64,000 nt of DNA, taken from assembly GCA_963797555.1 (NCBI GenBank), contig CAWCPV010000004.1:704001-768000 (forward strand), given 5' to 3'. Both the position numbers and the translations under genes were made by a program. Below are positions 8,806-64,000 of the stretch, in pieces. The stretch comes from an uncultured Gammaproteobacteria bacterium. GTDB taxonomy: Bacteria; Pseudomonadota; Gammaproteobacteria; CAWCPV01. Below the pieces are notes generated by a model. That model was not told where the DNA came from. It did no database searches and saw only the letters and a list, made by a program, of their open reading frames with translations. How positions within the stretch are numbered: position 1 is the first letter of the stretch; every line of letters starts with the position of its first letter.

Positions 8806-10458
8806 CTACCGGTGCGGCCAAAAGCGCCGGTTCTCCGGGTTATCCGCACGAACCACCATGTCCAACCGGACGGTCGCCCGCGTCATCCCACAGTAGAGCA
8901 CCCGCTCCTCCTCGGCCAGCCGATCCGGCCGGGGATTAACGTTCACCAGGATGATAGCAGGAGCTTCCTGGCCTTTGAACCGTCGAACACTATCGAACAT
9001 AAGCTGACCCTCCGTGAAGATCTGGTTGCCGCTCGCATCATACTTTTCGGTAAACCGCCGAAGCGAGACACCGCCGACCGTATCCAGCTCGCTGAACACC
9101 GAGCCACGCACTCCGCGGCACGTAAGCACTGCCATGTCGTCATAGGTAAAACCCCGGTGCAGCAACTCCTGAAGGACGCGAGCAACGACCTTGGGCTGCT
9201 CGGCCGGGTCGGAGTATTCGTGGACGCCTACCCCCATCCCCGGCAGATCGTTCCCGAGGTCGAACTCGAAGGGGAGCGTGTTCCGGATGAAGCGCGCGAT
9301 GGACTCGGGAGAGCGGTAGTTGAGCGGGCAGCGGTAGCCGACGAAGCCCGCGGTCGAAACGGGCGGGCGCCCTCGCAGGTTCTGGTCCGGGTCTTCGAGC
9401 CACAGGATGTCCGAGCCCTCGCGCAGGAAAAGGCTGAGGACATCGAGCCACTCCTGCTCGAAGTCCTGACCCTCGTCCACCACCAAGGCGTCGAACAGCC
9501 AGTCCTCCGGGATATGCTGGGCAGTGACCAGATCGGGAATCCTCCGCCAAAATTCGGGGTCTGCTCCCGAATGCTCGAAGTCCGGCGGCTGACCGCGGCT
9601 CTTCAGGAACTCCACGCAGAATCCATGGAAGGTATCCACGTGACCCTGCGCCGACAGTCGCGCCCGGAGCCGGGTGGCGAGTGGGCGGTTGAAACAGGTG
9701 AGAAGGACCCGTTTGCCCTCGGCCGCCTCCCGCGCGTAGAACTGCCGGGCCAGCAGGCTCTTCCCGCTCCCCGCGCTGCCGGTGAAGCGCAGGCGAAACG
9801 GCGTCATTTCGAGGTTGGCGAGAATGGAGGCGACGCCGCCGGCCTGGCGCACAAAGGCCCTCTCCTGGGCACTAATGCGCGCGTGAATGTCGGGCACAAC
9901 CTGGAAGCTCTGGCAGAAGAAGTCGTGTACCTGCTGGTACCAAGCCCACCTGACCGAACCCCGGCCCGAGGATGCTCTGGATACGCTCCGCCAGGCGGTC
10001 TCGGTCCCGGGCGTCGACGATGCGGGTCGCGTCCAGGCCCACGGCGTTGACGTTCTGCACCCGGTAGTCGGGGCAGTAGACGAGATAGTCGGCCCCAGTG
10101 CACGCGCCTTGCCTTGCTGCCACTGGAACTTCTGGCGCACCCGGTCGAGCGAGCGGTGGAGCTGCTCGGCGACATTCTTGGCGCCCTCGTCGTAGCGTTT
10201 GAAGAGACCCACCTCGGTTTCCTCGAGAGACCCGTTCTTCTGCTCGATGAACAACACGTCCCCCGAGCGGTTCAGCACCACGAAGTCGATCTCCCCGTAC
10301 ACCGTCCACCCCTGGTACTCCCTTGTCCAGTGGACGCCGTGGAAAACGGTGTAATCGGGCGGTAGCTGGTCCCTGAGCGCGCTCAGCGTCTCCAGCTCCG
10401 GGCTGTGGGCGCCCGAGAGTGCGAGCCGCGTAATGTCCGACGGGATGATGTAGGCCAA
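8806..10458 (-). CDS. NERD nuclease domain fused to SF1 (UvrD-like) helicase; two compensating frameshifts near 10095 and 9950
   Basis: NERD motif GEIDFVVL..IEQKNG; Walker A GSAGSGKS; VVDEGQDF; NYRSP; FKGQE; LYCGMTRA. An alternate frame (DYLVYCPDY..IVDARD) bridges the shifted stretch. Confidence 0.85.
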   Translation of the reverse strand: MAYIIPSDITRLALSGAHSPELETLSALRDQLPPDYTVFHGVHWTREYQGWTVYGEIDFVVLNRSGDVLFIEQKNGSLEETEVGLFKRYDEGAKNVAEQLHRSLDRVRQKFQWQQGKARALGPTISSTAPTTGCRTSTPWAWTRPASSTPGTETAWRSVSRASSGRGSVRWAWYQQVHDFFCQSFQVVPDIHARISAQERAFVRQAGGVASILANLEMTPFRLRFTGSAGSGKSLLARQFYAREAAEGKRVLLTCFNRPLATRLRARLSAQGHVDTFHGFCVEFLKSRGQPPDFEHSGADPEFWRRIPDLVTAQHIPEDWLFDALVVDEGQDFEQEWLDVLSLFLREGSDILWLEDPDQNLRGRPPVSTAGFVGYRCPLNYRSPESIARFIRNTLPFEFDLGNDLPGMGVGVHEYSDPAEQPKVVARVLQELLHRGFTYDDMAVLTCRGVRGSVFSELDTVGGVSLRRFTEKYDASGNQIFTEGQLMFDSVRRFKGQEAPAIILVNVNPRPDRLAEEERVLYCGMTRATVRLDMVVRADNPENRRFWPHR

Positions 10459-50950: not shown

Positions 50951-52433
50951 TTAGCCGACGGCGGCCTGCTCGCCTCGGCGGATCGCCTGCTGGGCACGCC
51001 GATAGAGCATCAGGTAATGCCACGCAGCCACCTCCCAGCTGAAGTCCTGGGCCATGCCGGTTTCGATGAGCTGGCGCCACAGTGCGGGTTGGCGGTAGAG
51101 GCCGACCGAGCGGCGGACCGCGCGCAGCAGCGCGCCTGCGTCCGGCTCCTCGAATACGACGCCGTTGGCGACGCCGGCCGCGAGATGGTCCTCCGTGGCA
51201 TCCACCACCGTGTCATTCAAGCCACCGGTGCGCCGCACCACGGGAACGGTGCCGTAGCGCAGGCTGTACATTTGATTGAGCCCGCATGGCTCGAAACGAG
51301 ACGGCATCAGCAGCATATCCGCGCCGGCCTCGATGAGATGTGCCAGCCCCTCGTCGAACCCGATATGAGCCGCGACGCGGTCCGGATAGCTGCGTACGGC
51401 GTCACGAACGGCATCCTCGTAACGGGCTTCGCCGCTGCCCAGGATTACGCACTGCACCCTCTCGTGCATCAGCTCGGGGAGGACCGCCAATAGCAGGTCG
51501 GGGCCCTTCTGCTCCACGAGACGGCCGATCATTCCCAGCAGGGGTGCGTCCGGCTTGGGCGGGAGACCGACCCGTGCTTGCAGGGCCTGCTTGTTCACGG
51601 CCTTGCCATCGAGATGATGCCGATCGTAGGTGGCGGCGAGCCATGGATCGTGGGCAGGGTTCCAGAGGGAGGAATCGATGCCGTTGAGTATACCCGAGAG
51701 CTGGGCCGATCGATGGCGTAGCAAACCCTCCAACCCGTACCCGAGGGCCGGCGTCAGGATCTCCCGTGCATAGGTCGGGCTGACGGTACTGAGCAGGTCG
51801 GCGAACACCAGCCCACCCTTCATGAACGAGAGTCGCCCGTAGAATTCCATTGCGTCAGGGGACCACAAGCGCGGCGGCAGCCCCAGGCTCCGAAACGTGT
51901 CCTGGGGGAAGAGCCCCTGGTACGCCAAGTTGTGGATGGTGTAGATGGTCGCCGGACGTGCGCGCTCCTCGTCCAGTAACGCCGGGACCAGTCCGGTTTG
52001 CCAGTCGTGGCAGTGCACCACGTCGGGCTGCCAGCTCAGACCCGCCTGGTCCAGAGCCAGCGCCACGACGACCCGGGCAAAGGCGTCGAAACGCTCCGCG
52101 TTGTCCGGCCAATCTCGGCCGTCCGCACCTACGTACGGATGTCCCGGTCGATCGAAGTAGGCCGGGATATCGACCAGCAGGCACGGAACCCTGCTGCCGG
52201 GCACGATCCCTTGCAGAAGCTGCGGCGCATCCTGCAACCCCGGGATCGGAACGGTGCCGAGCGGAGTCAGGCCATGCATCCGATCCTTGGCCGCCGGGTA
52301 GGCGGGGAGCACCAGCCGGACGTTCCTGCCGAAGTCTGGCCAACGCCGCAGGCAGGCTCCCGCAGACGTCGCCCAGCCCACCGGTCTTGACCAAGGGGTG
52401 GGCCTCGCTGGCGGCGAACAGGATCTTTTGCAT
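50951..52433 (-). CDS. glgA: Glycogen synthase; frameshift near 52335
   Basis: KTGGLGDV, HCHDWQTG, TIHNLAYQG, PSRFEPCGL. Confidence 0.93.
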
Positions 52434-52658
52434 CTCGGGAGCTCCAACTGCGTGTGCGCGGAAGCACAAGTTTCGGTTTTCGGCTTGTAGGTTTCAAGCC
52501 GCCCGTGTTCTACCCCCGTCAGAGGAGACCCGCGGGCGGCGAACGCGAGGTCTGGCATTCGACCGCCAATCATCCCATAATGCGCGGCTGTGGCCCGCGG
52601 CGCGCCACGTGGACCACGCCCATCGCAGAGAGGTTCGGGAGAGAGGAGGAAGCCAGGC

Positions 52659-53930
52659 ATGAGAACTGTCCGGCCTGCGCGTTTCGTCAGCCGGCTCACG
52701 CGTGACACCTTGGCGCTCATCCTGGCCGGAGGCCGAGGTTCTCGTCTCAAGCAGCTCACTCTATGGCGCGCCAAGCCCGCGGTGCCGTTCGGTGGAAAGT
52801 TCCGAATTATCGACTTCACCCTGTCCAACTGCACCAACTCGGGGATTCGCCGCGTGGGCGTCCTGACGCAGTACAAGGCCCATTCGCTCATTCGCCACAT
52901 CCAGCAGGGCTGGGGTTTCCTGCGCGGGGAGTTCGGCGAGTTCGTGGAACTGCTCCCGGCACAGCAGCGCATCGGCACCTCCGCCTGGTATGCCGGAACG
53001 GCGGACGCCGTCTACCAGAATCTGGACATCATCAGGAACTACCAGCCCGAGTACGTGCTGATCCTGGCCGGAGACCACATCTACAAGATGGACTATGGCC
53101 CGCTACTGGCCTACCACGTGGAGCAAAATGCCGACCTCACCGTAGGCTGCGTGGAGGTCCCCGTGGATCACGCCACGGCTTTCGGCGTGATGGCGGTGGA
53201 CGACGATGGCCGCATCCTCGGCTTCGACGAGAAGCCGGCGTGTCCGAGTCCGACGCCGGGCCGTCCGGGGCTGGCGCTCGCTTCGATGGGAATCTACGTA
53301 TTCAATGCCGGATTCCTTTACGAGCAGCTCATCAAGGACTCGGACGACATCAACTCCGCGCACGACTTCGGCAAGGACGTGATTCCCGCAGTCATCGATA
53401 AGTACCGCGTATGCGCTTACCCCTTCCGCGACGTTCAGAGCGGGGAACAGGGCTATTGGCGAGACGTGGGGACGGTGGACGCATACTGGTCGGCGAACCT
53501 GGAGCTGACCGAGGTGGTGCCGCCCCTGAACCTGTACGACGCCGAGTGGCCTATCTGGACCTACCAGGAGCAACTTCCGCCCGCCAAGTTCGTATTCGAC
53601 TACGATGGCCGGCGCGGAATGGCGGTGGACTCCATGGTCTCGGGGGGCTGCATCATCTCCGGGGCCGTACTGCGCCGCTCGCTGTTGTTCTCCAATGTGC
53701 ACGTGGAGGTGAACAGCTACCTCACAGAGGCGGTGATCTTGCCCGATGTCCACATCGGCCCGCGTTGCCGCCTGCACAAGGTCGTGCTCGACAAGGGGGC
53801 CGTGATCCCGGACGGCACGGTGATCGGTTTGGACCACCAGGTCGACAGCAAGCGCTTCTATGTCAGCCCCGGGGGGGTCGTGCTGGTGACTCCGGAGATG
53901 CTCGGCCAGGAGATACATCATGTCCGTTAA
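52659..53930 (+). CDS. glgC: Glucose-1-phosphate adenylyltransferase
   Basis: [39 protein letters not shown]. Confidence 0.97.
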
Positions 53931-53957
53931 CGGTTGTGGCGGCTGGAATTGCGGCCC

Positions 53958-55469
53958 ATGAGCCGGGATGCAAACTCCTGTCCACGGCGGGCGGGGATTC
54001 TGCTGCATCCGACTTCTCTCCCTGGACCCGGCGAGTCAGGCGACGTGGGGTCACAGGCGCACCGCTTTGTGGACTTCCTGGTGCAGGCAGGTCTGAGCGT
54101 CTGGCAGACCCTCCCGCTCGCCCCTGCTCACGAGGGCGGCTCACCTTATCAGTGCCTCTCCGTGCATGCGGGGAGCCCGCTGCTGATCAGCCTGGAGCGG
54201 CTAGCGCAGGACGGATGGCTCAACGCAGCACTGCTTTCGCAGCAGGAGCCCAACCCCCTGGCCAACCGCCAGCGCTGCCTTGCCCAGGCATTGGAAGGCT
54301 TCCGGCAGAAGGGGAGGTCCGAGGACCAGGAGGCATTTGCGGCCTTCAAGGTCGACCACTCGCATTGGCTGGACGACTACGCTCTCTATGTGGCCTTGCG
54401 GCAGCTTTACGAACAGAGATCCTGGAGCGAATGGCCCACGCCGCTGCGCGACCGCGACCCCAATGCCCTCGAGGAGGCGCGGCGGCGCCTCGCTCCGGCC
54501 ATCGACCAGCAGTGTTTCGAGCAGTTCGTGTTCTTTCGGCAGTGGGAGGAGCTGAAGCGTTACGCTAACCAGCGGGGCGTGCTGATGTTCGGAGACATGC
54601 CGATCTTCGTCGCTCACGACAGCGCGGATGTGTGGGCGCGACGGGAGTACTTCGAGCTGGACGAGTGCGGACAGCCCAAGGCGGTGGCAGGTGTTCCGCC
54701 CGACTATTTCTCCGAGAGCGGCCAGCGCTGGGGCAACCCGCTCTACCATTGGCCGCGTCTGGCGGCGGATGGGTTTTCCTGGTGGCTGGAGCGCATGGCC
54801 ACCCAGTTGCGCTTCTTCGACCTGATCCGAGTGGACCACTTCCGCGGATTTCAGGCGTACTGGGCGATCCCTGCCGAAGACGACACGGCGGTCAACGGGC
54901 GCTGGGTGGAAGCTCCCGGGGATGCCCTGTTCGCGGCGTTGCGCGACCATTTCGGTACGCTGCCGCTGGTGGCCGAGGACCTCGGGCTGATCACCCCGGA
55001 GGTGGAGGCATTGCGCGACAAGTACGAGCTGCCCGGGATGAAGGTGCTGCAGTTCGCATTCGACGGCGGGCCCGACAACCCGTATCTGCCGCACCAACAT
55101 ATCCGTCGGTGCGTCATGTACACGGGGACGCACGACAACGATACCACCCTCGGCTGGTTCCAGAGCCTGCCCAAGGATGCCCAGCAGCGCGTACAGGATT
55201 ACCTGGGATGGCCGGCGGAGCCGATGCCCTGGCCGCTGATTCGGGCGGCGTTCGCCTCCGTGGCGGAATTGACCGTGATCCCTCTACAGGACCCACTGAT
55301 GCTCGGGTCCGAGGCGCGCATGAACCGTCCCAGTCTGGACCACGGCAACTGGCGGTGGCGGTTCCGTTGGGATTGGGTGCCTGACGATCTCACGGCGCGT
55401 CTGCGCCACCTGACGGAGATTTACGGCCGCTGTCCAGTGCCGCCGAGGACCGAAGACGCCCCCGGATAG
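53958..55469 (+). CDS. malQ: 4-alpha-glucanotransferase
   Basis: GILLHPTSLP, GVPPDYFS, RVDHFRG, AEDLG, TGTHDNDT. Confidence 0.96.
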   Translation: MSRDANSCPRRAGILLHPTSLPGPGESGDVGSQAHRFVDFLVQAGLSVWQTLPLAPAHEGGSPYQCLSVHAGSPLLISLERLAQDGWLNAALLSQQEPNPLANRQRCLAQALEGFRQKGRSEDQEAFAAFKVDHSHWLDDYALYVALRQLYEQRSWSEWPTPLRDRDPNALEEARRRLAPAIDQQCFEQFVFFRQWEELKRYANQRGVLMFGDMPIFVAHDSADVWARREYFELDECGQPKAVAGVPPDYFSESGQRWGNPLYHWPRLAADGFSWWLERMATQLRFFDLIRVDHFRGFQAYWAIPAEDDTAVNGRWVEAPGDALFAALRDHFGTLPLVAEDLGLITPEVEALRDKYELPGMKVLQFAFDGGPDNPYLPHQHIRRCVMYTGTHDNDTTLGWFQSLPKDAQQRVQDYLGWPAEPMPWPLIRAAFASVAELTVIPLQDPLMLGSEARMNRPSLDHGNWRWRFRWDWVPDDLTARLRHLTEIYGRCPVPPRTEDAPG

Positions 55470-55508
55470 GAGCCGCACCCCTTCGGGGGAGCGGCGGCCG
55501 GGCGGCCG

Positions 55509-58086
55509 TCACAGCCAGCGCATGGACCCGCACTCGAAGCGGTGGCTGAGCAGCGGGTGATAAGGGTAGATCCGTATCTTGTACGATTGCAGGCCGGGCA
55601 GAGGAATGCCGCGTTCCGGCGAGCACAGGTCCAGCCGGAACAGCGTCTCGCCTTCCAGCGTTCGTCCGGCTGCCGTGAAGTCCAGGCTGTTGGTCGGGAT
55701 GAATTCCCCCAACTCGTTCTCTTTGCCCAGCACGCATTCCACCACCACGTCGTCGGGACCCAGTTCATTGAGGAAGACGGCGACCTCGATAGGGACCGAG
55801 TGCCCGTGCTTCACCCGCAGCGGAGGGGCGCTCACCATCCGGATGCGGATCCCGGACCAGCATTCGGCCGTGCGCTTCTTCCACGCGGCCAACTTCCGCG
55901 ACGGCGCCCCCTCATCGGCGAGCAACTGGGCGCGCTGGCGGCTGGCCGGGCCGTAGTAGTCCCGGACATAGTCCAGGGCCATGCGCTGAGCATTGAAGCG
56001 CGGCATGATCGACTTCATCGAGGCTTTGGACTTGCGCACCCAGCCTTGGGGCTCCCCGTGGCCGTTGCGTGAAAAGTACAGCGGGATGACTTGGTGCTCC
56101 AAGGTGTCCAGGAGCTCCATGCGCCTCTTCGGCGTTGCGCGTGTCCGGGTCGAGGCCCGCGGCGTGGGGAGTGATGGCCCAGCCGTTTTCGCCGTTATAA
56201 GCCTCGCCCCACCAGCCGTCCAGCACGCTGAAGTTGATGACGCCGTTGATGCCGGCTTTCATCCCCGAGGTGCCGCACGCCTCCAGAGGGTACTCCGGGT
56301 TGTTGAGCCACACGTCGACCCCGGGCAGCAGCTTGCGGGCCATGGACAGGTTGTAGTCCTCCAGCAGGATGATCCGGCCCTCGAACTCCGGCCTCATGCT
56401 GATCTCGGCGACCTCGCGGATGAGCTGCTGGCCCGGCCTGTCGTTCGGATGCGCCTTGCCGGCGAAGATGAACAGCATCGGCCGTTGCCGATCGTTCAGC
56501 AGGCGCGCCAGGCGTCGGAAGGTCGGAGAACAGCAGGGTCGCGCGCTTGTAGGTGGCGAAGCGGCGCGCGAAGCCGATGACCAACGTGTCGAGCTGGTGC
56601 GGCGACAGGTGTCTGGTGATGCGCCGGATGTGCGACTCGCTGCAGCCATTGCGCCTGAGCTGGATGATCGCACGATGGCGGGCATCCTCGAGCATCTCCG
56701 CCTTGAGAACCTGGTGGGTGCTCAGATACACGTGGTCCGGGATGCTGTCGATGTGCTGCTCCCAGAACTGCTCGTCGTCCAGCTTGTTGCGCCACCCGGT
56801 CCCGAAATACATGTCGAACAACGCGACCCAGGCGCGTCCCAGGAAGGTCGGAACGTGGATGCCGTTGGTGACATACCCGAGGGGATTTTCCTCCGGCGGG
56901 ACCTCCGGCCAGATATAGGCTTCCATCTCCGCGGCGATGCGCGCCGTGGATGCGACTCACGCCGTTGTGGAACCGGGATCCACGCAGGGCCAGCGCAGTC
57001 ATGTTGAAGCCATGACGGGTGTTGTTGCTCGCGCCTAAAGCCAGGAACCGCGGCTCCGAGATGCCGAGTTGGCGCAAATAGTCGGAAAAATAGGTGCGCA
57101 TCAGACTGTGGTCGAAGATGTCGTGCCCCGCAGGCACTGGTGTGTGGGTCGTGAACACCGTGCACGCTGCGACCAGCTCCAGAGCGCTGTCGAAATCCAT
57201 CCCATCATCGACCCGCTCGCGGCAGCGTTCCAGGACCTGGAAGGCGGCATGTCCCTCGTTCATATGCCAGACGGTGGGCTCCAACCCAGCGCCCGCAGCG
57301 CTTTCACGCCCCCGATCCCGAGACAATCTCCTGCTGGATGCGTGTCTCGCTGTCCCCGCCGTAGAGCTGCATGGTGATGGAGCGGTCCACGTCACGGTTC
57401 GCGGGCAGGTCGCTGTCCAGGAGGTACAGAGTGATGTGCCCGGCGCGGGCGCGCCAGACCTTCAGCTCCACCCGCCGACCGGGAAGATCCAGGAACACGC
57501 GCACCTCTTCCCCGGCGGCGTCGCGCGCAGGGGTCACCGGCAGATCGGCGGAGTGCACGTAGGCATAGTGGGCGATCTGGTCCCCGTGGCAGTCGATGAC
57601 CTGGGTGAAATATCCCTGGCGGTACAGCAGACCGACCGCCACGAACGGCAAGCCCAGATCGCTGACTGCCTTGCAGTAGTCCCCGGTCAGGATCCCCAAG
57701 CCCCCGGCGTAGATGGGGAAGCTCTCGTGGAAGCCGTACTCCGCCGAGAAATAGGCGACGAGGTCCTGCTCCGGGTTGAGGATGCGCTCGACGTGGGCAT
57801 GCACCCGCTCGTTCTTGTAAGTGTCGTAGCCGGAGAGGACGCGATTGTAGTCCTCGAGAAACACCATGTCGTGCGCCGCCGCCTCCAGCTTGTCCTGGGC
57901 GATGCGGCGCAGGAACACCTTGGGGTTGTGGCCGCAAGCCTCCCAGAGATCCTGGTCTAGGCGGTGGAAGAGGGTGCGGACGCCCCGGTCCCAGCTATAG
58001 AAGAGGTCGTTTGCGAGCTCATCGAGGCGCCGGAAACGCTCCGGCAGAATCGGCTGGACCTCGAGGGTGAAGCGGGTACCCGGCAT
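55509..58086 (-). CDS. glgP: Second alpha-glucan phosphorylase, split by several frameshifts
   Basis: [23 protein letters not shown] and EACGTSGMK are spread across five consecutive overlapping ORFs. Confidence 0.88.
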
Positions 58087-58176: not shown

Positions 58177-58263
58177 TGGTGCCGAGGGTCGGAGTCGAAC
58201 CGACACGGTGTCGCCACCACCGGATTTTGAGTCCGGCGCGTCTACCAGTTTCGCCACCTCGGC
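58177..58263 (-). tRNA. tRNA-Leu (CAA)
   Basis: 87 nt with long variable arm; anticodon arm CCGGA-CTCAAAA-TCCGG; CCA end. Confidence 0.97.
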
Positions 58264-58699
58264 TCTTTGAGAGGAAGGGTTCTGAGACAGGAACCTAACG
58301 TGTCAGCTCCCGGGCAACAGCCACAGGCTCGTCACGCGACAGCCCCCAGTTTACGTCAATTTGTGGGAGCCCGTCACGCATCGCCGCAACGCGGCTCGTT
58401 GGCCGCGAGGGTATGGTTCGGTCGCGGTGCCGGAGGCACGGCGGACCCGATGGTATAGGGCTGGCTGTCCCGTTGCCCATGGTTGGCCCGGTCCCGTGGC
58501 TGTGACGTAGAGCCCGCAGGCTGCCATTCCCGACTTGGAACGGCGCGACTGAGCGGGGCTCTGGCGGTGCCGGCGTTCCATGACACGGCAGGGCCATCGT
58601 TTTCCGACCGCGACAGCTTGGCCGGGTGTGCCCGCGGGATGCGCTGGTGCAGCGCGGCGGAGCCCCGCGAATGAGACTCGCCTAAACTATGTCCCTCTG

Positions 58700-58806
58700 G
58701 CCATTCGGCAGTCGGCGGGACGCCCCGAAGGGGTGGCGTACCGGGAGGTACGCCATGAACACCGCGCAACGCCGCTATCGGCACGCGCAGCCGGTTTCAC
58801 AGGCTC
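58700..58806. repeat. Second copy of the dispersed palindromic element at 25447-25556
   Basis: GCCATTCGGCA..GGGGTGGCGTAC.GGGAGGTACGCCATGA.CACCGCGCAACGCCGCTATCGG..TTCACAGGCTC. Confidence 0.75.
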
Positions 58807-58932
58807 CGAGCACAGCGCTTCCCGGAGGCGGCAAGCTGTGGGAGGAGGTGAGCCGAGGCGAACCCCTGGGCGGAATGCGCTTCACGATGGCCCCGCGGCA
58901 CGGGCAGAAGGCGCGGGAAGTCCGCCCGTAAA

Positions 58933-59260
58933 TGAGTGCGCCAACTATCTGCCGACCTACAAAGACCTGCTGAAAAACGACGAATACTTGGCCCAGGGAC
59001 TGCCCATCGCCACTGGGGTCATCGAGGGCGCCTGTCGTCACTTGGTCAAGGACCGCATGGACCTCGCCGGCGCGCGTTGGGGTCTGCAACGCGCCGAGGC
59101 CGTTCTGAAGCTGCGCTCGCTCGCCTCCAGCGGCGACTCCGAGTCGTACCGGGAGTTCTACAAGGCCCAGGCGTTAAGGCGCAACCACGCATCACGCTAT
59201 GCCAGCCCCCTGCTACCGGAGGCTGCCTGACCGTTCCCATCGTCCGAAAGAGCCACACCC
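58933..59260 (+). mobile_element. ISKra4-family transposase C-terminal remnant with right end
   Basis: YLAQGLPIATGVIEGACRHLVKDRMD..GARW; candidate end AGAGCCACACCC. Confidence 0.8.
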
Positions 59261-59276
59261 AAAATTATTAGTAGGC

Positions 59277-60194
59277 TCAGGAGTTCCTCGCTAGAAGTGC
59301 GGCGACCCGTTTGGCGATGCGGCAGTCCGGGGCGTCGAACCAACTGAACGCGGGCGAGGGGTTCACCTCGAAGCAGAACCATTCGCCGGCAGGTGATTGA
59401 CGCAAGTCGATCCCGGCCACGGGCAGCTCCAGCGAAGCGGCGAGGACACGGCACCGATCGGCCACCTCCACCGGTACATCCGCCTGGCGTCGACGCACTG
59501 CGGCCCCCTGACGCTCGCTGTATCGGTAGTCATCCGCCTCCGATACGAGCCCGCAGACGTATACATCATCACCGACTACGTGCACCCGGTAGTCAACCCC
59601 CCTCACGTACTCCTGGAACTGCGTGGGACAGACGGCTACCGCCTCGAGCTGCGCCCGTTTCTTCGGGGTCAGACGCGACACAATGCTACGGACGCCGCTC
59701 ACTGATTTGTATACGACATCGCCGAGCCGATCACAAAACTCCTCCGCCGCCTTCGGATCGGTTGTGACCAGCGTTTCCGGCACGGCAAAACCGGCTGCGC
59801 GTATCAGTTCCAATTGGTACGGTTTGGAGCTGTTGGAAGCCATCGCACTCATACGATTGACAACCAGCGCCGAGGTCATTTCGCTCCAGAGCCGTATAGC
59901 CTCGTACACCGCGACCGCGTAACGTCCTTCGGCACTCTGGTACCCGGCCTTGGCCACAGCCGGTATGCCGAGTGGATCGTACGGACGCACGTACGCCGCA
60001 GCGACCTTTTCGAGATCCAGACGCAGACCATCCCATTCGACCACGCACGCGACATCGGCGTCGACGCTGAGCTCGACGTTCGTCTCGAGCACCGCGCGCT
60101 GATCAATGAGCACAGCCGTGCGCTCCATGCGTGCCAATTCGTTCCGGACGGAGGCGATCGGGCGATCGCCCGCCAGTCCCCAGAGGAGGATCAT
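59277..60194 (-). CDS. RimK/MvdD-like ATP-grasp ligase (graspetide-synthetase type)
   Basis: VVN..SNSSKPYQL, VPETLVT, VYKS, FQEYVRGVDYRVHVVG, DDYRY, GIDL, FEVNPSP. Confidence 0.88.
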   Translation of the reverse strand: MILLWGLAGDRPIASVRNELARMERTAVLIDQRAVLETNVELSVDADVACVVEWDGLRLDLEKVAAAYVRPYDPLGIPAVAKAGYQSAEGRYAVAVYEAIRLWSEMTSALVVNRMSAMASNSSKPYQLELIRAAGFAVPETLVTTDPKAAEEFCDRLGDVVYKSVSGVRSIVSRLTPKKRAQLEAVAVCPTQFQEYVRGVDYRVHVVGDDVYVCGLVSEADDYRYSERQGAAVRRRQADVPVEVADRCRVLAASLELPVAGIDLRQSPAGEWFCFEVNPSPAFSWFDAPDCRIAKRVAALLARNS

Positions 60195-60985
60195 GCAGTC
60201 TCCATTGCGCTGGCAACCATCCGCACCGGGCGCGCTTCGTGAGGTGCACGTACGAAGTCGCGACACCGGTCGATTAAAGCCTCGGCAACGCTTTCCGCGG
60301 CGACATCGATCCAGAGGCCCGCCTCGAGAAATACCGGTGCCTGCTCTGATCCGCGTTCGAAATACACCCGGAGCAGTTCGACCCCGGCGTCTCGGGCTAA
60401 AGCGATGGCCGCTTGCGCTAACGAAGCCTCGGCGGCACCAGGCGAGCGCCCACCCACCAGGAAAGCACGGTCGCCTACCACATCGACAAAGACCGCATTC
60501 GCGTTGACCCGGCACTCAGCGCCAGACGACCCGCCCGGCGTGTATACGATGCGTTGCCTGACCGGCCGGGTTGCTATCCCGAGCCGTCGTGCCCGTTGTA
60601 CCCACTGGGCAACGCTCCACGAAGGACCTCCCAGATTGGACGGCGACGGACGATTGAGAACGGGGCATTCGAGCGACATGAGCCACGCCACGAGGAACGC
60701 TTGCATCTCGGCCGCGGCATACCTGCGGTCTTCCTCGTGCACATGCGTCAGCTCAGCCTCTCCTACTGCCGGGATACGCGAGATGACCGCGCGGATGTCG
60801 TGGGTTGCGATCACCTGCCCATCGATCACCGCCTCTCCAAGTGCCACTCCGGCCACGTAGCGCCAGCCGGGACGCGACAGGTCCGCGCAGGTGAGGAGCG
60901 CCGCTCGCTCACCCGCGGCGCGCCAATGTTGAACGAGGGCGCGCGCTCCCGCGTCATGCCCGTACGCAAGGACAACGAACATCAT
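60191..60985 (-). CDS. Degenerate ATP-grasp paralog (pre-grasp domain kept, catalytic motifs lost)
   Basis: DRRYAAAEMQAFL..VLNRPS and VDVVGDR are present, but FLEAGLW replaces FLEVNP; 4-bp overlaps on both sides. Confidence 0.65.
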   Translation of the reverse strand: MMFVVLAYGHDAGARALVQHWRAAGERAALLTCADLSRPGWRYVAGVALGEAVIDGQVIATHDIRAVISRIPAVGEAELTHVHEEDRRYAAAEMQAFLVAWLMSLECPVLNRPSPSNLGGPSWSVAQWVQRARRLGIATRPVRQRIVYTPGGSSGAECRVNANAVFVDVVGDRAFLVGGRSPGAAEASLAQAAIALARDAGVELLRVYFERGSEQAPVFLEAGLWIDVAAESVAEALIDRCRDFVRAPHEARPVRMVASAMETA

Positions 60986-61686
60986 TCCGTCCGTGGTTCA
61001 TTAAGTGCCCGCTCGCCCAGCATGGGGCGCTCGTCGGGAGCGATGAAGACACGCTGCTCGGAGTACCTCGGCGGTACGACAAACGGCAGGTTCTCCCCGA
61101 GCGGGTAGTCCAGGTGAAAGCCCTCGCTTATGACGCCAGGCCCATGGTGGTCTGCGTCTTTCTTCTCGGCGGCACCCAGACCGTCCTTGGTCGCCTCTTT
61201 CGCATTCTTGTCAGTATCGTCCTTGTCCTCCTTGTGTTCCTTGCTATCTTTGCTGTCCTTCTGATGTTTGGCTTCCTGGTTATCTTTGGTGTCCTTGGTT
61301 TCTTTAGTGTCCTTGGTTTCTTTAGTGTCTTTAGTATCCTTGGTATCCTTGGTGTCCTTCGACGCTTCTTTCTCCTTGCTGTCCTTTTCCTTGGCGTTGA
61401 GAAGGGTGACGATCTCGTTCAAGCAGACACTTAGCTGCGCCCGCAGCGCGTCGATACAGATGAAAGCGCGGCGCACGTTATCGCCGAGCGCATCGAGGTC
61501 CGCTTCGATCTTATGTAATCGCTCGTTGATGCCTCCCTCTTCGGGGGTCTTCCCCGCCTGCACCAGGCTTTCGCCGTCGATCCAGTCGCGGTGCTGGAAC
61601 GTGCGTACGAAGGTGTAAGCGCAATTCGGATCGGTCGCCTGTACACCGTTCACACACGCGATCTCGAGCGGGTTTGCGTCTGCCAT
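60982..61686 (-). CDS. Protein with N-terminal FxHxDWIDG/coiled-coil domain, K-[D/E]-T repeats and C-terminal FIAPDERP motif; candidate ATP-grasp substrate
   Basis: TAGGAGA RBS before ATG 61686; eight K[DE]T units within a ~75-aa K/D/E-rich tract. Confidence 0.8.
   Translation of the reverse strand: MADANPLEIACVNGVQATDPNCAYTFVRTFQHRDWIDGESLVQAGKTPEEGGINERLHKIEADLDALGDNVRRAFICIDALRAQLSVCLNEIVTLLNAKEKDSKEKEASKDTKDTKDTKDTKETKDTKETKDTKDNQEAKHQKDSKDSKEHKEDKDDTDKNAKEATKDGLGAAEKKDADHHGPGVISEGFHLDYPLGENLPFVVPPRYSEQRVFIAPDERPMLGERALNEPRTE
61283..61359 (-). repeat. 9-bp coding tandem repeat (KDT/KET)
   Basis: AA[AG]GA[ACT]AC[CT] units with variable third codon positions. Confidence 0.9.
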
Positions 61687-61705
61687 TTGCAGTTCTCCTA
61701 TAGAC

Positions 61706-63997
61706 CTACGTCTCGCTAACGCCGCTTGCGCCGACGTGGCGAAGTTGGCGATACGGACGAAATGTGCGCGACAGCCTCGGCGAAAGCGCCTCGGCCGAGC
61801 CGTCGCCGTCCGCGTCGATTTGGTCACGGATCGCCCGGGTGTCGACGATCGTGCCCAGCGGGCGGATCCGTTCGAGCAGGTTCATCAGGAACTCGTATTG
61901 CTCCAGGTTGACGAGCGCTCCGTCGGGAGGCGCAACCCGCAGCTCCAATGGGTCGACCCGTCCACGCGGGTCCGCACTTCCGCGTTTACCGGGTACCGCC
62001 ACAACCACTGCGCACAAGCCGGTCCCGGAGATCCACCCGTTGCGGCTGCCAATCTTGCGTTCGAGCTGCCCTGGTTCGCCGCTCAGCGGCATCAGGTACC
62101 AACGGAAGGAATTCTTTGAACGCGCCGTGAGCAACGTCGCGTCGCCAGGCAGCGTCGTCACCGCCAACACGAGGAGCACGCGGCTGTCGCTGGTCAAAAG
62201 CGGGAGTATCGAGAAGAATCCAGCCTTCTGGAACGCGATGATCAGTGTAAGCAGCGTCTGCGCCGCCGTTGCGTCGTGCGCGATGAGCTTTGCGGCGAGC
62301 GCAGCATCGATTTGTAACGTTGCGACCAGTTCGCTCGGCAACGCCTGCAGCGCAGACTTGGCCCTGTCCACGTCCTGGGCGTCCTTCACCATATGGATGC
62401 GTGCATCGGTCATCGATTGTACCAGCGCGTCGGGTGGCGCCACGGCCAGCCCCCAGGCGGCGCGTTCTTCTGCGCCCGTGAGCAGAATCCATGGCGCGAT
62501 GCCGGCCGCGGCTCGTTCCACGTCTGCATCGAGCAGCGCGAGGACGAGCAGCGCATCGGGTCCCGAATCGAGCGGTGCGTTCCAGCGCGCATCGAGTAGC
62601 GTTTTTCCCGCCGTTACGTTCTTACCGATTACCAGCCCGTGGAATACCAGGTGGGAGACGTAGGTCTTGCTGGCATCGAGCGGATGCACGGTCGGCAGGC
62701 CGCATGGGGCAAGGAGCCAGCGGCCGCGCGGATCCTCGGTCGATGACTTGGGCTGCATTAGAGCGAGGAGCGCGCGGATCTCTGGCGCCGTATCAGGAGC
62801 GATGTTGCCGACCACATGGTTGGCTACCAGCGCGTCCAGCTCCGTCGCCGGCACTGCCTCGACGTCGACACCGAGGCCCAGTTCGTAGCGGCTTCCGCCC
62901 GCATGGTCCTGTGCACGCAGGACGGACCAGCGGCGCGTGCCACCGAGCGCCCGGCGGCACTCGCCCAGGCGATCCAATGCCCGCGCCAGCATGGGCGCGA
63001 TGTGCGCATTAGCGGGAAACTCGAAATTCAGGGCCAGGCGGGCGCGTAAGGCGTTCTCCTCGAGACGCACGTCGCTGGGGAGTAGGCGCGTGTCGGGGAC
63101 GTCGACGCCGGGCTGGAGCAGGAAAGCTTGACGCGCGTAATCCAAGAACGCGGTCCGCGGCGTGTCGTCTGGAGACGAGACCAGGCGCACGGCAACGAGG
63201 AACTCGGTGTCCGGCTCGGCGATGGTCAAGCGGTGCGTTACGCCCATCCGCGACAGAAGGCCCGCGTTGCCGCCGGTGCCCGGCCCGTTGATCACGCCCT
63301 CGACTGCGCGGCGCGACGAGCGCAAGAACGGGCGGTAGATGCTGAGGCGCGCGCGGAACGACGCGTCGGCCTCGCCTTGCGGTACGATGGTGGGCGCGCG
63401 CAGCGTCGCATCCCACACCAGGCGTGCGTTGAAACGCGGTACGCCCAACTCCGCACCAAGGCGGTCGAGCGCGGCGCCGCGTGCTTCGGCAAGTCGACGG
63501 GCGGCATAGATCTCGTTCGCCTCGCGTCTGAGGCGCATCTTCTCCGAGCCGATCACATAGAGCAGGCGCGCCAGGTTTCCCTCGACGACGCGCAGATCGA
63601 AGAGATCGCCCATTGCCGCAGACTCGCCTCCGACGCCCGGATCGAGGAACACGTCGAATGGCGTGGCGAAGTCGAGATCCATCGAGGCATCACCAGGGCG
63701 GTAGGCTAGAACTGACGCCCCCGCCTCCGTGTACGGCGCGAAACGCACGACCGCCGGCTCCACGGCCTCGCCGCTCGATTGGGTGATGTGGACGGTGCAG
63801 GCGAGTGCTTCAGCGCCGACCGCTCCCTTTGTCGAGACGAGGAGCAGCGGCAGCCTTGCCTTCCAGTCGACCCGGGCGGCGCCTGCCGCGTCGACGACCA
63901 GCTTGGTCTCGACCGCGCCTCCAGTGAACGGTCCGCTCAGGTGAGCGAACATGCTCTCGTGAGCCGCCGATCGATTGGGGTCCGGATGCAGGCTCAT
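61706..63997 (-). CDS. Large protein with a phage baseplate-wedge/tail-like motif (may start beyond the window)
   Basis: LAEARGAALDRLGAELGVPR..GEADASFRARL and C-terminal LLERIRPLGTIV resemble baseplate wedge motifs. Confidence 0.6.
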   Translation of the reverse strand: MSLHPDPNRSAAHESMFAHLSGPFTGGAVETKLVVDAAGAARVDWKARLPLLLVSTKGAVGAEALACTVHITQSSGEAVEPAVVRFAPYTEAGASVLAYRPGDASMDLDFATPFDVFLDPGVGGESAAMGDLFDLRVVEGNLARLLYVIGSEKMRLRREANEIYAARRLAEARGAALDRLGAELGVPRFNARLVWDATLRAPTIVPQGEADASFRARLSIYRPFLRSSRRAVEGVINGPGTGGNAGLLSRMGVTHRLTIAEPDTEFLVAVRLVSSPDDTPRTAFLDYARQAFLLQPGVDVPDTRLLPSDVRLEENALRARLALNFEFPANAHIAPMLARALDRLGECRRALGGTRRWSVLRAQDHAGGSRYELGLGVDVEAVPATELDALVANHVVGNIAPDTAPEIRALLALMQPKSSTEDPRGRWLLAPCGLPTVHPLDASKTYVSHLVFHGLVIGKNVTAGKTLLDARWNAPLDSGPDALLVLALLDADVERAAAGIAPWILLTGAEERAAWGLAVAPPDALVQSMTDARIHMVKDAQDVDRAKSALQALPSELVATLQIDAALAAKLIAHDATAAQTLLTLIIAFQKAGFFSILPLLTSDSRVLLVLAVTTLPGDATLLTARSKNSFRWYLMPLSGEPGQLERKIGSRNGWISGTGLCAVVVAVPGKRGSADPRGRVDPLELRVAPPDGALVNLEQYEFLMNLLERIRPLGTIVDTRAIRDQIDADGDGSAEALSPRLSRTFRPYRQLRHVGASGVSET

Positions 63998-64000
63998 CGC

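Follow-up and report, generated by a model that had tools for sequence, protein, structure and literature searches.

We found that the far end of a 64,000-nucleotide stretch from an uncultured gammaproteobacterium (contig CAWCPV010000004.1, source interval G000:C4:704001-768000; the whole stretch is hereafter called the window) encodes three genes which, judging from their order and homology, would constitute one module: an intact ATP-grasp ligase closest to the graspetide synthetases, a truncated ATP-grasp paralog predicted to be catalytically dead, and a 234-amino acid (aa) protein whose C-terminus carries a short conserved tag. The module follows directly on a baseplate-wedge-like gene, and the next 40 kb past base 64000 were also analyzed. 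Our preferred reading, which we hold with a probability of roughly 0.6, is that the ligase and its dead paralog form a heterodimer that docks on the tag, here termed a C-terminal "follower", and cross-links Lys to Asp/Glu in the neighboring tract of a fibre-like tail component. A wider proposal is that the Lys/acid tract and the F-I-x3-E-R-P tag, stapled by a ligase-pseudoligase couple, make up a widespread tagging system that has been recruited repeatedly by contractile injection or tail-like particles for their fibre tips; this we offer more tentatively, as it falls short of an even chance. Taken together, the comparisons point to a graspetide-type modification acting on whole proteins, with a recurrent and hitherto unreported link to tail-fibre genes.

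The cluster comprises four minus-strand genes (59277-63997 in the open reading frame (ORF) reading of the window; Table 1). The start and stop codons of the last three overlap in ATGA 4-bp junctions, at 60191-60194 between the 305-aa and 264-aa genes and at 60982-60985 between the 264-aa and 234-aa genes, while the stop of the 763-aa gene and the ATG of the 234-aa gene are separated by a 19-nt gap with an AGGAGA box preceding the latter. The original prediction, made from the DNA letters alone, had described precisely this arrangement: four genes with 4-bp overlaps among the last three, a baseplate-like protein, a 234-aa protein with eight K[DE]T repeats, a degenerate ATP-grasp, and an intact ATP-grasp with SKPYQL, DYR and EVNP motifs, the pair being of graspetide type. 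Each of these elements was recovered: the eight consecutive triplets occupy residues 110-133 of the 234-aa protein and are encoded by a 9-bp tandem array (61286-61359, 8.2 copies, 78% matches), and the three ligase motifs are found at residues 123-128, at 201-203 and 222-224 (DYR occurring twice) and at 276-279, respectively.

Table 1. Coordinates of the cluster and of the features at its outer end, in window positions.
Feature	Position	Strand	Remark
Intact ATP-grasp ligase, graspetide-synthetase-like, 305 aa	59277..60194	-	
Truncated ATP-grasp partner, predicted pseudoenzyme, 264 aa	60191..60985	-	
Tagged fibre-like protein, putative substrate, 234 aa	60982-61686	-	
N-terminal module of the 234-aa protein	61348..61686	-	conserved ~50 aa and long helix (residues 53-113)
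Lys/Asp/Glu-rich tract of the 234-aa protein	61153..61395	-	residues 98-178
8 x K[DE]T	61288-61359	-	inside the Lys/Asp/Glu-rich tract
C-terminal tag of the 234-aa protein	61003..61050	-	residues 213-228; core F214 I215 x3 E219 R220 P221
Baseplate-wedge-like protein, 763 aa	61706..63997	-	
tRNA-Leu(CAA)	58177..58263	-	outer end of cluster; ARAGORN
216-aa ORF	58580-59230	+	no Pfam match; between the glycogen-gene block and the ligase

Profile searches with the 305-aa protein recovered NCBIfam models of graspetide ligases and their kin (TIGR04187, E=1.1e-35; MvdD, 3.6e-22; MvdC, 1.5e-18; RimK family, 1.3e-15), with bit scores far below the respective cut-offs (TIGR04187 123.4/350, MvdD 78.9/475, MvdC 67/425), and it belongs to a clade separate from the named graspetide ligase families. 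Its best sequence matches in the PDB are PsnB (6e-23) and PruB (2e-17), followed by CdnC, AMdnB, MdnB and MdnC, with RimK reaching only 1e-6. The alignment with PsnB spans the Y-K-x-V-x-G, F-Q-E, D-x-R-V and E-x-N stretches, which we take to contribute to the nucleotide-binding core, and these are among the 51 columns invariant across 24 homologs. The match to Pfam RimK (29.1 bits against a cut-off of 21) also indicates an intact nucleotide-binding ATP-grasp core. The family is large: of the 8000 candidates scored, 4135 are relatives at E<=0.001, with 50-60% identity across phyla. Thus, from sequence comparison, the 305-aa protein appears to be an intact ATP-grasp enzyme closest to the graspetide synthetases.

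RimK, the ribosomal protein S6 glutamate ligase, extends a C-terminal carboxylate, and a RimK- or tubulin-glutamylase-like activity, adding one or more amino acids to the tag Glu or to acids of the tract with no cross-links formed, has to be weighed against ligation between side chains. It would accord with Pfam RimK being the sole Pfam match above cut-off, with RimK being among the PDB matches, with the PHROG match to "S6 glutaminyl transferase" (1.9e-13), and with the tag holding a single nearly invariant acid. The graspetide synthetases score far better, though, both in the PDB (6e-23 versus 1e-6) and in NCBIfam (TIGR04187 at 1e-35 versus the RimK family at 1e-15); together with the composition of the substrates described below, this leaves such an activity quite unlikely.

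The 264-aa partner matched nothing in Pfam, NCBIfam, PHROGs or PADLOC, and hence has no Pfam or NCBIfam ATP-grasp match. Its AlphaFold2 (AF2) model, of high confidence (mean predicted local distance difference test score, pLDDT, 90.9), adopts an ATP-grasp-like fold whose best Foldseek matches in the PDB are MdnC, MdnB, PsnB, AMdnB, PruB and CdnC (E from 4e-10 to 1e-8). A profile alignment with the active enzyme is collinear and lacks the central ATP-binding stretch (probability 35%, E=4e-4), so that we consider the partner a truncated, presumably catalytically dead ATP-grasp paralog. Its relatives fall into 1538 clusters at E<=1e-3, and the most conserved patch is a D-R-x-Y-x-A-A-E-M stretch (residues 86-94), a predicted contact of the tag.

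To place the module in a broader context we scanned one genome per species, which yielded 571 confirmed loci; the 80 best-scoring of these were analyzed over ~10 kb each, so that the shares of different contexts given below are biased. The partner adjoins the ligase in 77/80 loci, from many phyla. Nine loci have a tandem ligase pair after the partner: L031, L038, L040, L043, L046, L048, L054 and L060, all from Okeania, and the cyanobacterial L042.

Comparison of the neighboring proteins uncovered a single conserved signal, a C-terminal tag of the form F-I-x3-E-R-P-x-[VL]-G. In 77/80 loci the regular expression F-[IV]-x3-4-[EDL]-R-P matches an ORF near the pair, no more than 6 kb from the ligase; the three misses are two loci cut beside the ligase and one lone ligase without a partner, and the count includes a doubtful plus-strand match in L082, where the genuine tagged protein is encoded on the opposite strand with its Glu replaced by Lys. 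Across 40 aligned C-termini the F, E, R and P are invariant and the I nearly so, the Glu being replaced in two proteins (in L062 and L082). The tagged proteins range from 58 to ~2500 aa with unrelated N-termini, and a variable 4 to 98 residues follow the tag. Among the loci, jackhmmer seeded with the 234-aa protein reached 55 tagged proteins that belong to other families. The original prediction had tied the ligases to repeat proteins: a linked neighbor is indeed the rule, its conserved determinant being the tag and not the K-D/E-T repeat. That the adjacent protein is the substrate, also proposed there, is made likely by this synteny along with the complex model described below.

A six-frame scan of the window's own genome with the tag pattern extended by x-[VLI]-[GDE] returned six matches, only two of which lie near an ORF end with the pair beside them, each directly upstream of an ATP-grasp pair (contigs C4 and C3). 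The second trio, on contig C3 at ~532493-536073 (L083:8358-12073), encodes a 686-aa tagged protein of Kelch type and a partner of 216 aa, and its ligase shares 47% identity with that of the window. Transposase genes of the ISL3 and DDE types lie on its flanks, and BrxA is encoded ~3 kb away. As a further side observation, partner ORFs at L065:~9267-10200 and in L071 themselves match the tag expression near their C-termini (F-[IV]-x3-L-R-P); the match coincides with the F-x2-A-x2-W-P-D stretch conserved in the partner family and could represent a pseudo-substrate or chance.

The residues preceding the tag have a distinctive composition, and in most of the other carrier families, too, they form a tract rich in Lys and Asp/Glu. 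For 79 proteins, the composition of the 100-residue segment preceding the tag was set against that of their remaining sequence, after dropping eight short or duplicate ORFs and the two partner proteins that match the expression. Lys makes up 12.3% of the tracts against 2.5% elsewhere (4.9x) and Glu is enriched 2.7x; Arg is depleted (0.48x), Thr is at 0.91x and Ser is unchanged. K-[DE] dipeptides number 616 against 215 expected (z 35), and Lys recurs at a spacing of three (z 23) and almost never at a spacing of one. Consistent with this, the tract of the window's own subfamily keeps 10 Lys and 2 Asp positions almost unchanged, and the pairing of Lys with an adjacent acid is likewise nearly invariant, while the third triplet position, occupied by Thr in the K[DE]T repeats, varies. 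The original prediction had regarded the repeat as built of donor and acceptor residues; this applies to Lys and Asp/Glu but not to Thr, which is neither conserved nor enriched. Hence, an amide link through Lys is better supported than an ester through Thr. Thr as the ester donor in the repeat was accordingly dropped as a general rule, though it may hold for the 234-aa protein itself.

The same figures bear on a RimK-like addition of amino acids: enrichment of Lys with concomitant depletion of Arg points to a need for an amine as the nucleophile, and the variable distance from the tag to the protein end implies that the C-terminal carboxylate is not the target, on which ground RimK-style extension of that carboxylate was discarded as a candidate.

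The 234-aa protein has 47 close relatives with a common architecture. In a subfamily of 28 sequences there are 23 invariant columns, nearly all in residues 28-89. In the AF2 monomer only the helix at residues 53-113 is predicted with some confidence (pLDDT 73-86), the remainder being low (mean 56.6). Thus, what the original prediction took for a folded N-terminal domain is instead a conserved segment of ~50 aa and one long helix, not confidently folded. Two proteins of 374-378 aa (P0315 and P0317) combine this N-terminal module with another C-terminus that has neither tract nor tag, which indicates that the module is a separate, reusable unit. An ESM Atlas search with residues 1-97 returned plant families, all with scores <0.8, and was discarded. 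The gene occupies the position of a tail-fibre gene, after gp25-like, J-like and wedge-like genes. We infer from this position and layout (anchor, coiled coil and variable tip) that the protein would be a small modular fibre, with the ATP-grasp pair taking the place of fibre-assembly genes.

A complex model of the ligase, the partner, the last 100 aa of the 234-aa protein and ATP reached a score of 0.89, while none of the three controls exceeded 0.00; 58/80 solved complexes and 2/110 mismatched pairs attain the mark applied, which is a rough guide here, given our own alignments and the inclusion of ATP. The runs share at least 48% of their contacts, and the partner pLDDT is no lower than 40. 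In the model, the lowest predicted errors belong to contacts made by the tag residues F214 and I215, on the ligase side with residues 162-164 and 182-191 and on the partner side with residues 82-93, and these stretches hold invariant columns of both families. A tag lodged at the interface of enzyme and pseudoenzyme would explain why the dead paralog is kept.

The proposed mechanism would run as follows. The ligase and its dead paralog would form a heterodimer, as the model and the conservation of both families suggest, with the tag acting as a C-terminal follower, held on one side by the active subunit's central domain and on the other by the D-R-x-Y-x-A-A-E-M helix of its dead counterpart. 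The enzyme is then predicted to activate Asp/Glu side chains with ATP and to join them to Lys side chains in the Lys/Asp/Glu-rich tract 20-60 residues upstream of the tag; going by its composition, the product would be a series of isopeptide (lactam) links, either intra-chain or between the chains of a trimer. The window substrate would be a short fibre- or whisker-like part of a divergent contractile-tail-like particle, with an N-terminal anchor segment, a coiled-coil helix and a modified tip, as gene order and architecture suggest.

The genomic contexts of the 80 loci, in which gene families were defined as single-linkage BLAST clusters with one representative each scanned against Pfam, show how far the link to tails extends. 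Baseplate_J, Tail_P2_I or window-type wedge genes lie upstream in 19, and partial signs of a baseplate context (cut loci, an AAA gene downstream, or the same carrier family) are seen in nine more. The cyanobacterial loci with carriers of an unknown family and no tail gene in reach number 26, the Kelch type seven, the actinobacterial loci with the tagged protein downstream and beside a Tc-toxin-A-like gene four, and those with other contexts 15. The expectation that ligase homologs would recur behind baseplate or tail-fibre genes is thus borne out in at least 19/80 loci, but the original coupling of the pair to tails as such is not, given the cyanobacterial and Kelch-type loci. A quick maximum-likelihood tree built from 82 ligases disperses the tail-linked loci: its well-supported branches require at least seven label changes, and the cyanobacterial loci form one clade nested among the tail-linked ones, the root being arbitrary.

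The window substrate together with its tail proteins recurs in only 2/80 loci, L003 and L004 (tblastn), where the counterparts of the 763-aa protein are 72% and 58% identical in the same gene order. In ~15 other loci the tag is found on long proteins directly following Baseplate_J and P2-I-like genes; these are of the DUF6519 kind by BLAST cluster and, for L009, by Pfam (E=5.1e-69), the cluster in question (f5) mixing P2-I-like and DUF6519-type proteins. In the DUF6519-type loci the tagged gene comes directly after the P2-I-like gene. Pfam scans of ten tag carriers recovered DUF6519, Kelch, Big_2/Ig/TIG, patatin and subtilase domains.

In the actinobacterial loci (L011, L024, L067 and L081) the tagged protein is encoded downstream of the ligase, and in L011, L067 and L081 (not L024) the tagged gene is followed by one for a 2100-2200-aa protein; that of L067, the sole one scanned, matches the ABC_toxin_N, Neuraminidase-like and VRP1 families and is therefore Tc-toxin-A-like. 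Thus, the trio may accompany another kind of delivery machine in these organisms.

This distribution also raises the question of whether the trio is a self-contained mobile cassette which came to lie beside the tail cluster by chance, with the 234-aa protein as its private substrate, outside the particle. The 26 cyanobacterial and seven Kelch-type loci with the trio and no tail genes would be expected under such a scenario, as would the second trio of the window's genome with its transposase genes and BrxA, and the want of a tail-fibre family match for the 234-aa protein. It does not easily account for the order of wedge genes, short tagged protein, partner and ligase being kept in one Vicinamibacterales and one Kofleriaceae genome at 48-82% identity, for the ~15 other loci with tagged long proteins right after Baseplate_J and P2-I-like genes, or for L005, L007 and L017, where the pair lies between fibre-side genes and an AAA-ATPase-family gene. 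The tight packing of the window genes, with overlaps and only a 19-nt gap with its ribosome-binding box after the wedge gene, is likewise against it, and we hold chance juxtaposition to be unlikely.

Alternatively, the locus might be an ordinary pathway for a ribosomally made peptide modified after translation (RiPP) with an oversized precursor: the tract would be cut off as a free graspetide, e.g. a protease inhibitor, and the N-terminal domains would be carriers or processing enzymes. Some carriers are indeed proteases, such as the subtilase of L077; multi-core precursors are known (PMC5934393), and peptidases surround a ligase branch with a truncated ATP-grasp neighbor for which no precursor was found (available text of PMC8939145). 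Yet across the 80 gene maps no conserved protease or exporter family accompanies the trio, the nearest thing being an ABC-type family in 16 loci, on either strand and at a median distance of ~3 kb. No common cleavage motif was apparent upstream of the tract in the aligned carriers, and the fibre, Kelch and Ig-type carriers resemble functional proteins. Release of a free peptide therefore strikes us as improbable, and cross-linking of a resident protein part remains the preferred reading.

The original prediction had called for a search for tail genes past the window's end, and these were found: a J-like gene, a gp25-like gene and weak sheath matches. The same-strand ORFs past base 64000 encode, in order, proteins of 475, 160, 448, (101), 238, 191, 120, 134, 1298, 88, 146, 388 and 315 aa, up to the gene for the exonuclease VII large subunit (xseA), which marks the cluster boundary. 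Pfam is nearly empty for them. The 475-aa J-like protein matches the PHROG baseplate wedge family phrog_6 (E=2.5e-35) and, among solved structures, Phi92 gp145 (7.8e-5) and a "Wedge 2 protein" (2e-4), and the 160-aa protein is gp25-like (phrog_975, 2.8e-6; phrog_43, 1.9e-3), so that the gp25-like and J/gp6-like wedge genes of a contractile phage-tail-like cluster are both present. For the 763-aa protein, called baseplate-like from the outset, the direct matches are weak (phrog_6 baseplate wedge, 6e-4; phrog_1160, 3e-3; pyocin R2 Tri1a, 0.0066; Phi92 gp146, 0.018) and its neighbors give the stronger support: the adjacent 475-aa and 763-aa proteins match gp145 and gp146, respectively, which are themselves neighbors in Phi92.

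Further along, the 388-aa sheath candidate matches Pfam Phage_sheath_1 below cut-off (E=0.0094) and phrog_23 and phrog_165 at 1e-3 to 2e-3, and 26/30 of its nearest ESM Atlas clusters are in sets carrying the sheath Pfam (scores 0.96-0.97). The 448-aa protein, a spike by position, has a single weak match to a gp5/Vgr OB-fold protein (E=0.088). Nothing above cut-off was recovered from Pfam, NCBIfam, PHROGs or PADLOC for the 1298-, 315-, 238-, 191-, 134- and 120-aa proteins; below it there are a Dit-like match for the 191-aa and an HBM match for the 1298-aa protein. The 1298-aa protein, in the tape-measure position (L001:10793-14689), has a long hydrophobic stretch in the middle of its translation, and an 88-aa ORF lies between its gene and the tube-sized 146-aa gene.

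The order of sheath, tube, 1298-aa gene, hub, wedge and fibre is phage-like and, going by these assignments, appears to match a myophage tail module that lacks the head genes. We found neither an Afp15-like AAA ATPase nor the usual Pfam markers of extracellular contractile injection systems (eCIS) of the Afp/PVC type: of the 17 ORFs lying between the ligase and xseA that were scanned, none matched AAA, DUF4157, CIS_tube or Baseplate_J. Searches with jackhmmer from the 763-, 475-, 448- and 160-aa proteins established no connection to the Baseplate_J and Tail_P2_I families of the other loci, and a scan of viral contigs, which reaches close relatives only, recovered no relative of the J-like protein. 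Thus, the genes beyond base 64000 probably represent a very divergent contractile-tail-like cluster.

Several observations weigh against cross-linking of a tail part and have to be set beside the evidence above. On the side of the particle, the 388-aa candidate has no PDB sequence match and its sheath matches are weak; the adjoining 146-aa gene is called tube by position alone, with no match of any kind; and 61/80 loci have no clear baseplate gene in their 10 kb. The 234-aa protein matches no tail-fibre family in the ESM Atlas or in Pfam, NCBIfam, PHROGs or PADLOC, the latter four returning nothing beyond low-complexity matches, and its N-terminal ~50 aa are unfolded in the monomer model. On the side of the chemistry, the ligase lies below every curated NCBIfam cut-off; 7/79 tracts have no K[DE] dipeptide and only 39/79 have five or more; an Okeania protein (L031) bears the tag without a Lys/acid tract; a charged Lys/Glu tract may be no more than a linker or a single helix; and the reaction might take place at the tag's own nearly invariant Glu. 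As for the complex, the substrate chain has a pLDDT of 41-48 with the tract placed without confidence, and the existence of solved ligase-leader complexes (5ig9, 7drn and 7mgv) means that the passing score may reflect memory of them.

The surroundings of the cluster offer some hints as to its history. The tRNA-Leu gene and the 216-aa ORF (58177-59276) may mark an island edge, and the ORFs at 50951-58086, read from their translations alone, resemble glycogen metabolism genes (synthase, ADP-glucose pyrophosphorylase, 4-alpha-glucanotransferase and phosphorylase). The J-like gene was absent from all 40 genomes of the same class that were searched, and the closest copies are in Acidobacteriota and Myxococcota genomes. 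With the tRNA-Leu at its end and the J-like gene absent from its class, the cluster fits an acquired island. At its inner end, beyond the window and beside xseA, a 227-aa ORF (L001:17476-18159) has partial copies at eight other places on five contigs of the genome (44-64% identity over ~60 residues) and looks like a repeated element.

If the proposal holds, it would be the first case of enzymatic, ATP-driven cross-linking of a phage-tail-type fibre. Contractile injection and tail-like particles, with fibres that set the target range and are the object of re-engineering, would then gain a post-translational assembly step. At the fibre tip, the modification could form an inter-chain isopeptide zipper or a displayed knot akin to a protease inhibitor, hardening or functionalizing the fibre. 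A large orphan group of graspetide-type ligases (571 loci at one genome per species, 1538 partner clusters) would gain substrates, not small peptides but entire proteins labeled with a short tag at the C-terminus, and the ATP-grasp pseudoenzyme would acquire a concrete role as the second wall of the substrate-docking site. The tag and the two small enzymes could also serve as a portable tool for stapling protein ends.

Among known systems, both window proteins are most closely related in sequence and fold to the graspetide synthetases (MdnC/MdnB of microviridin, PsnB of plesiocin, CdnC and PruB). These enzymes ligate side chains in an ATP-dependent manner and are directed by a short recognition motif on the substrate, in which the window pair would resemble them. 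Graspetide leader peptides bind the central domain, which is where the complex model puts the tag. Whereas those enzymes take a short peptide with an N-terminal leader, the tag is carried by proteins of 58 to ~2500 aa and is C-terminal to the presumed core; moreover, unlike in the classical systems, a dead paralog is an obligate neighbor. RimK, likewise an ATP-grasp enzyme modifying a whole protein near its C-terminus, is a distant relative of much lower similarity than the graspetide enzymes.

Individual elements of the proposed scheme have precedents. According to the available text of PMC12848669, MyxF installs serial Lys-Glu lactams in tandem (KxxE)n repeats, and the inactive MyxD2 works only with its partner ligases; that myxomiditide pathway differs in its small precursor, N-terminal leader, free protease-inhibitor product and want of a tail context, and in MyxD2 being a full-length ligase, unlike the truncated window partner. 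A recognition element placed C-terminally is also compatible with such enzymes: in the part available of PMC13003496, ThfB is still guided by a leader moved to the C-terminus. The rosaritide synthetase needs a co-purifying partner protein, MirC, as set out in the available portion of PMC13097080; the dependence on a partner is alike, while its precursor is a peptide and has no tail link there.

On the side of the particles, DUF6519 has been designated eBAP5, an eCIS baseplate-anchor domain of tail fibres, whose genes lie downstream of Tail_P2_I and Baseplate_J genes (accessible part of PMC12923769); the main text, to the extent available, has no occurrence of "ATP-grasp". The ~15 loci with DUF6519-type carriers share this arrangement. 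The 234-aa protein of the window has no DUF6519 domain by Pfam, the window's baseplate genes are unlinked by sequence to those of these loci, and its cluster shows no AAA gene by Pfam, such a gene being present in related loci such as L005 and L007. Our literature search, which covered few subscription papers, returned none linking ATP-grasp enzymes with eCIS or tail fibres; the supplements of PMC8939145 and PMC13097080 may list such loci.

The loci also fit the description of "branch 8" by Makarova et al. 2022 (PMC8939145, in its available text), in which the ligase is typically beside a truncated inactive ATP-grasp and no precursor was predicted, the precursor search having covered neighbors of <=150 aa only. 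Those loci were linked to unrelated peptidases, suggested to supply the peptides, and to an uncharacterized cyanobacterial family; the same portion of the text mentions neither a C-terminal tag nor tail genes, "baseplate" and "contractile" having no occurrences. The pairing of ligase and truncated ATP-grasp in 77/80 loci is the typical trait of this branch, to which the present loci may belong. If the two are the same, branch 8 would find its missing substrate signal in the tag carried by large proteins.

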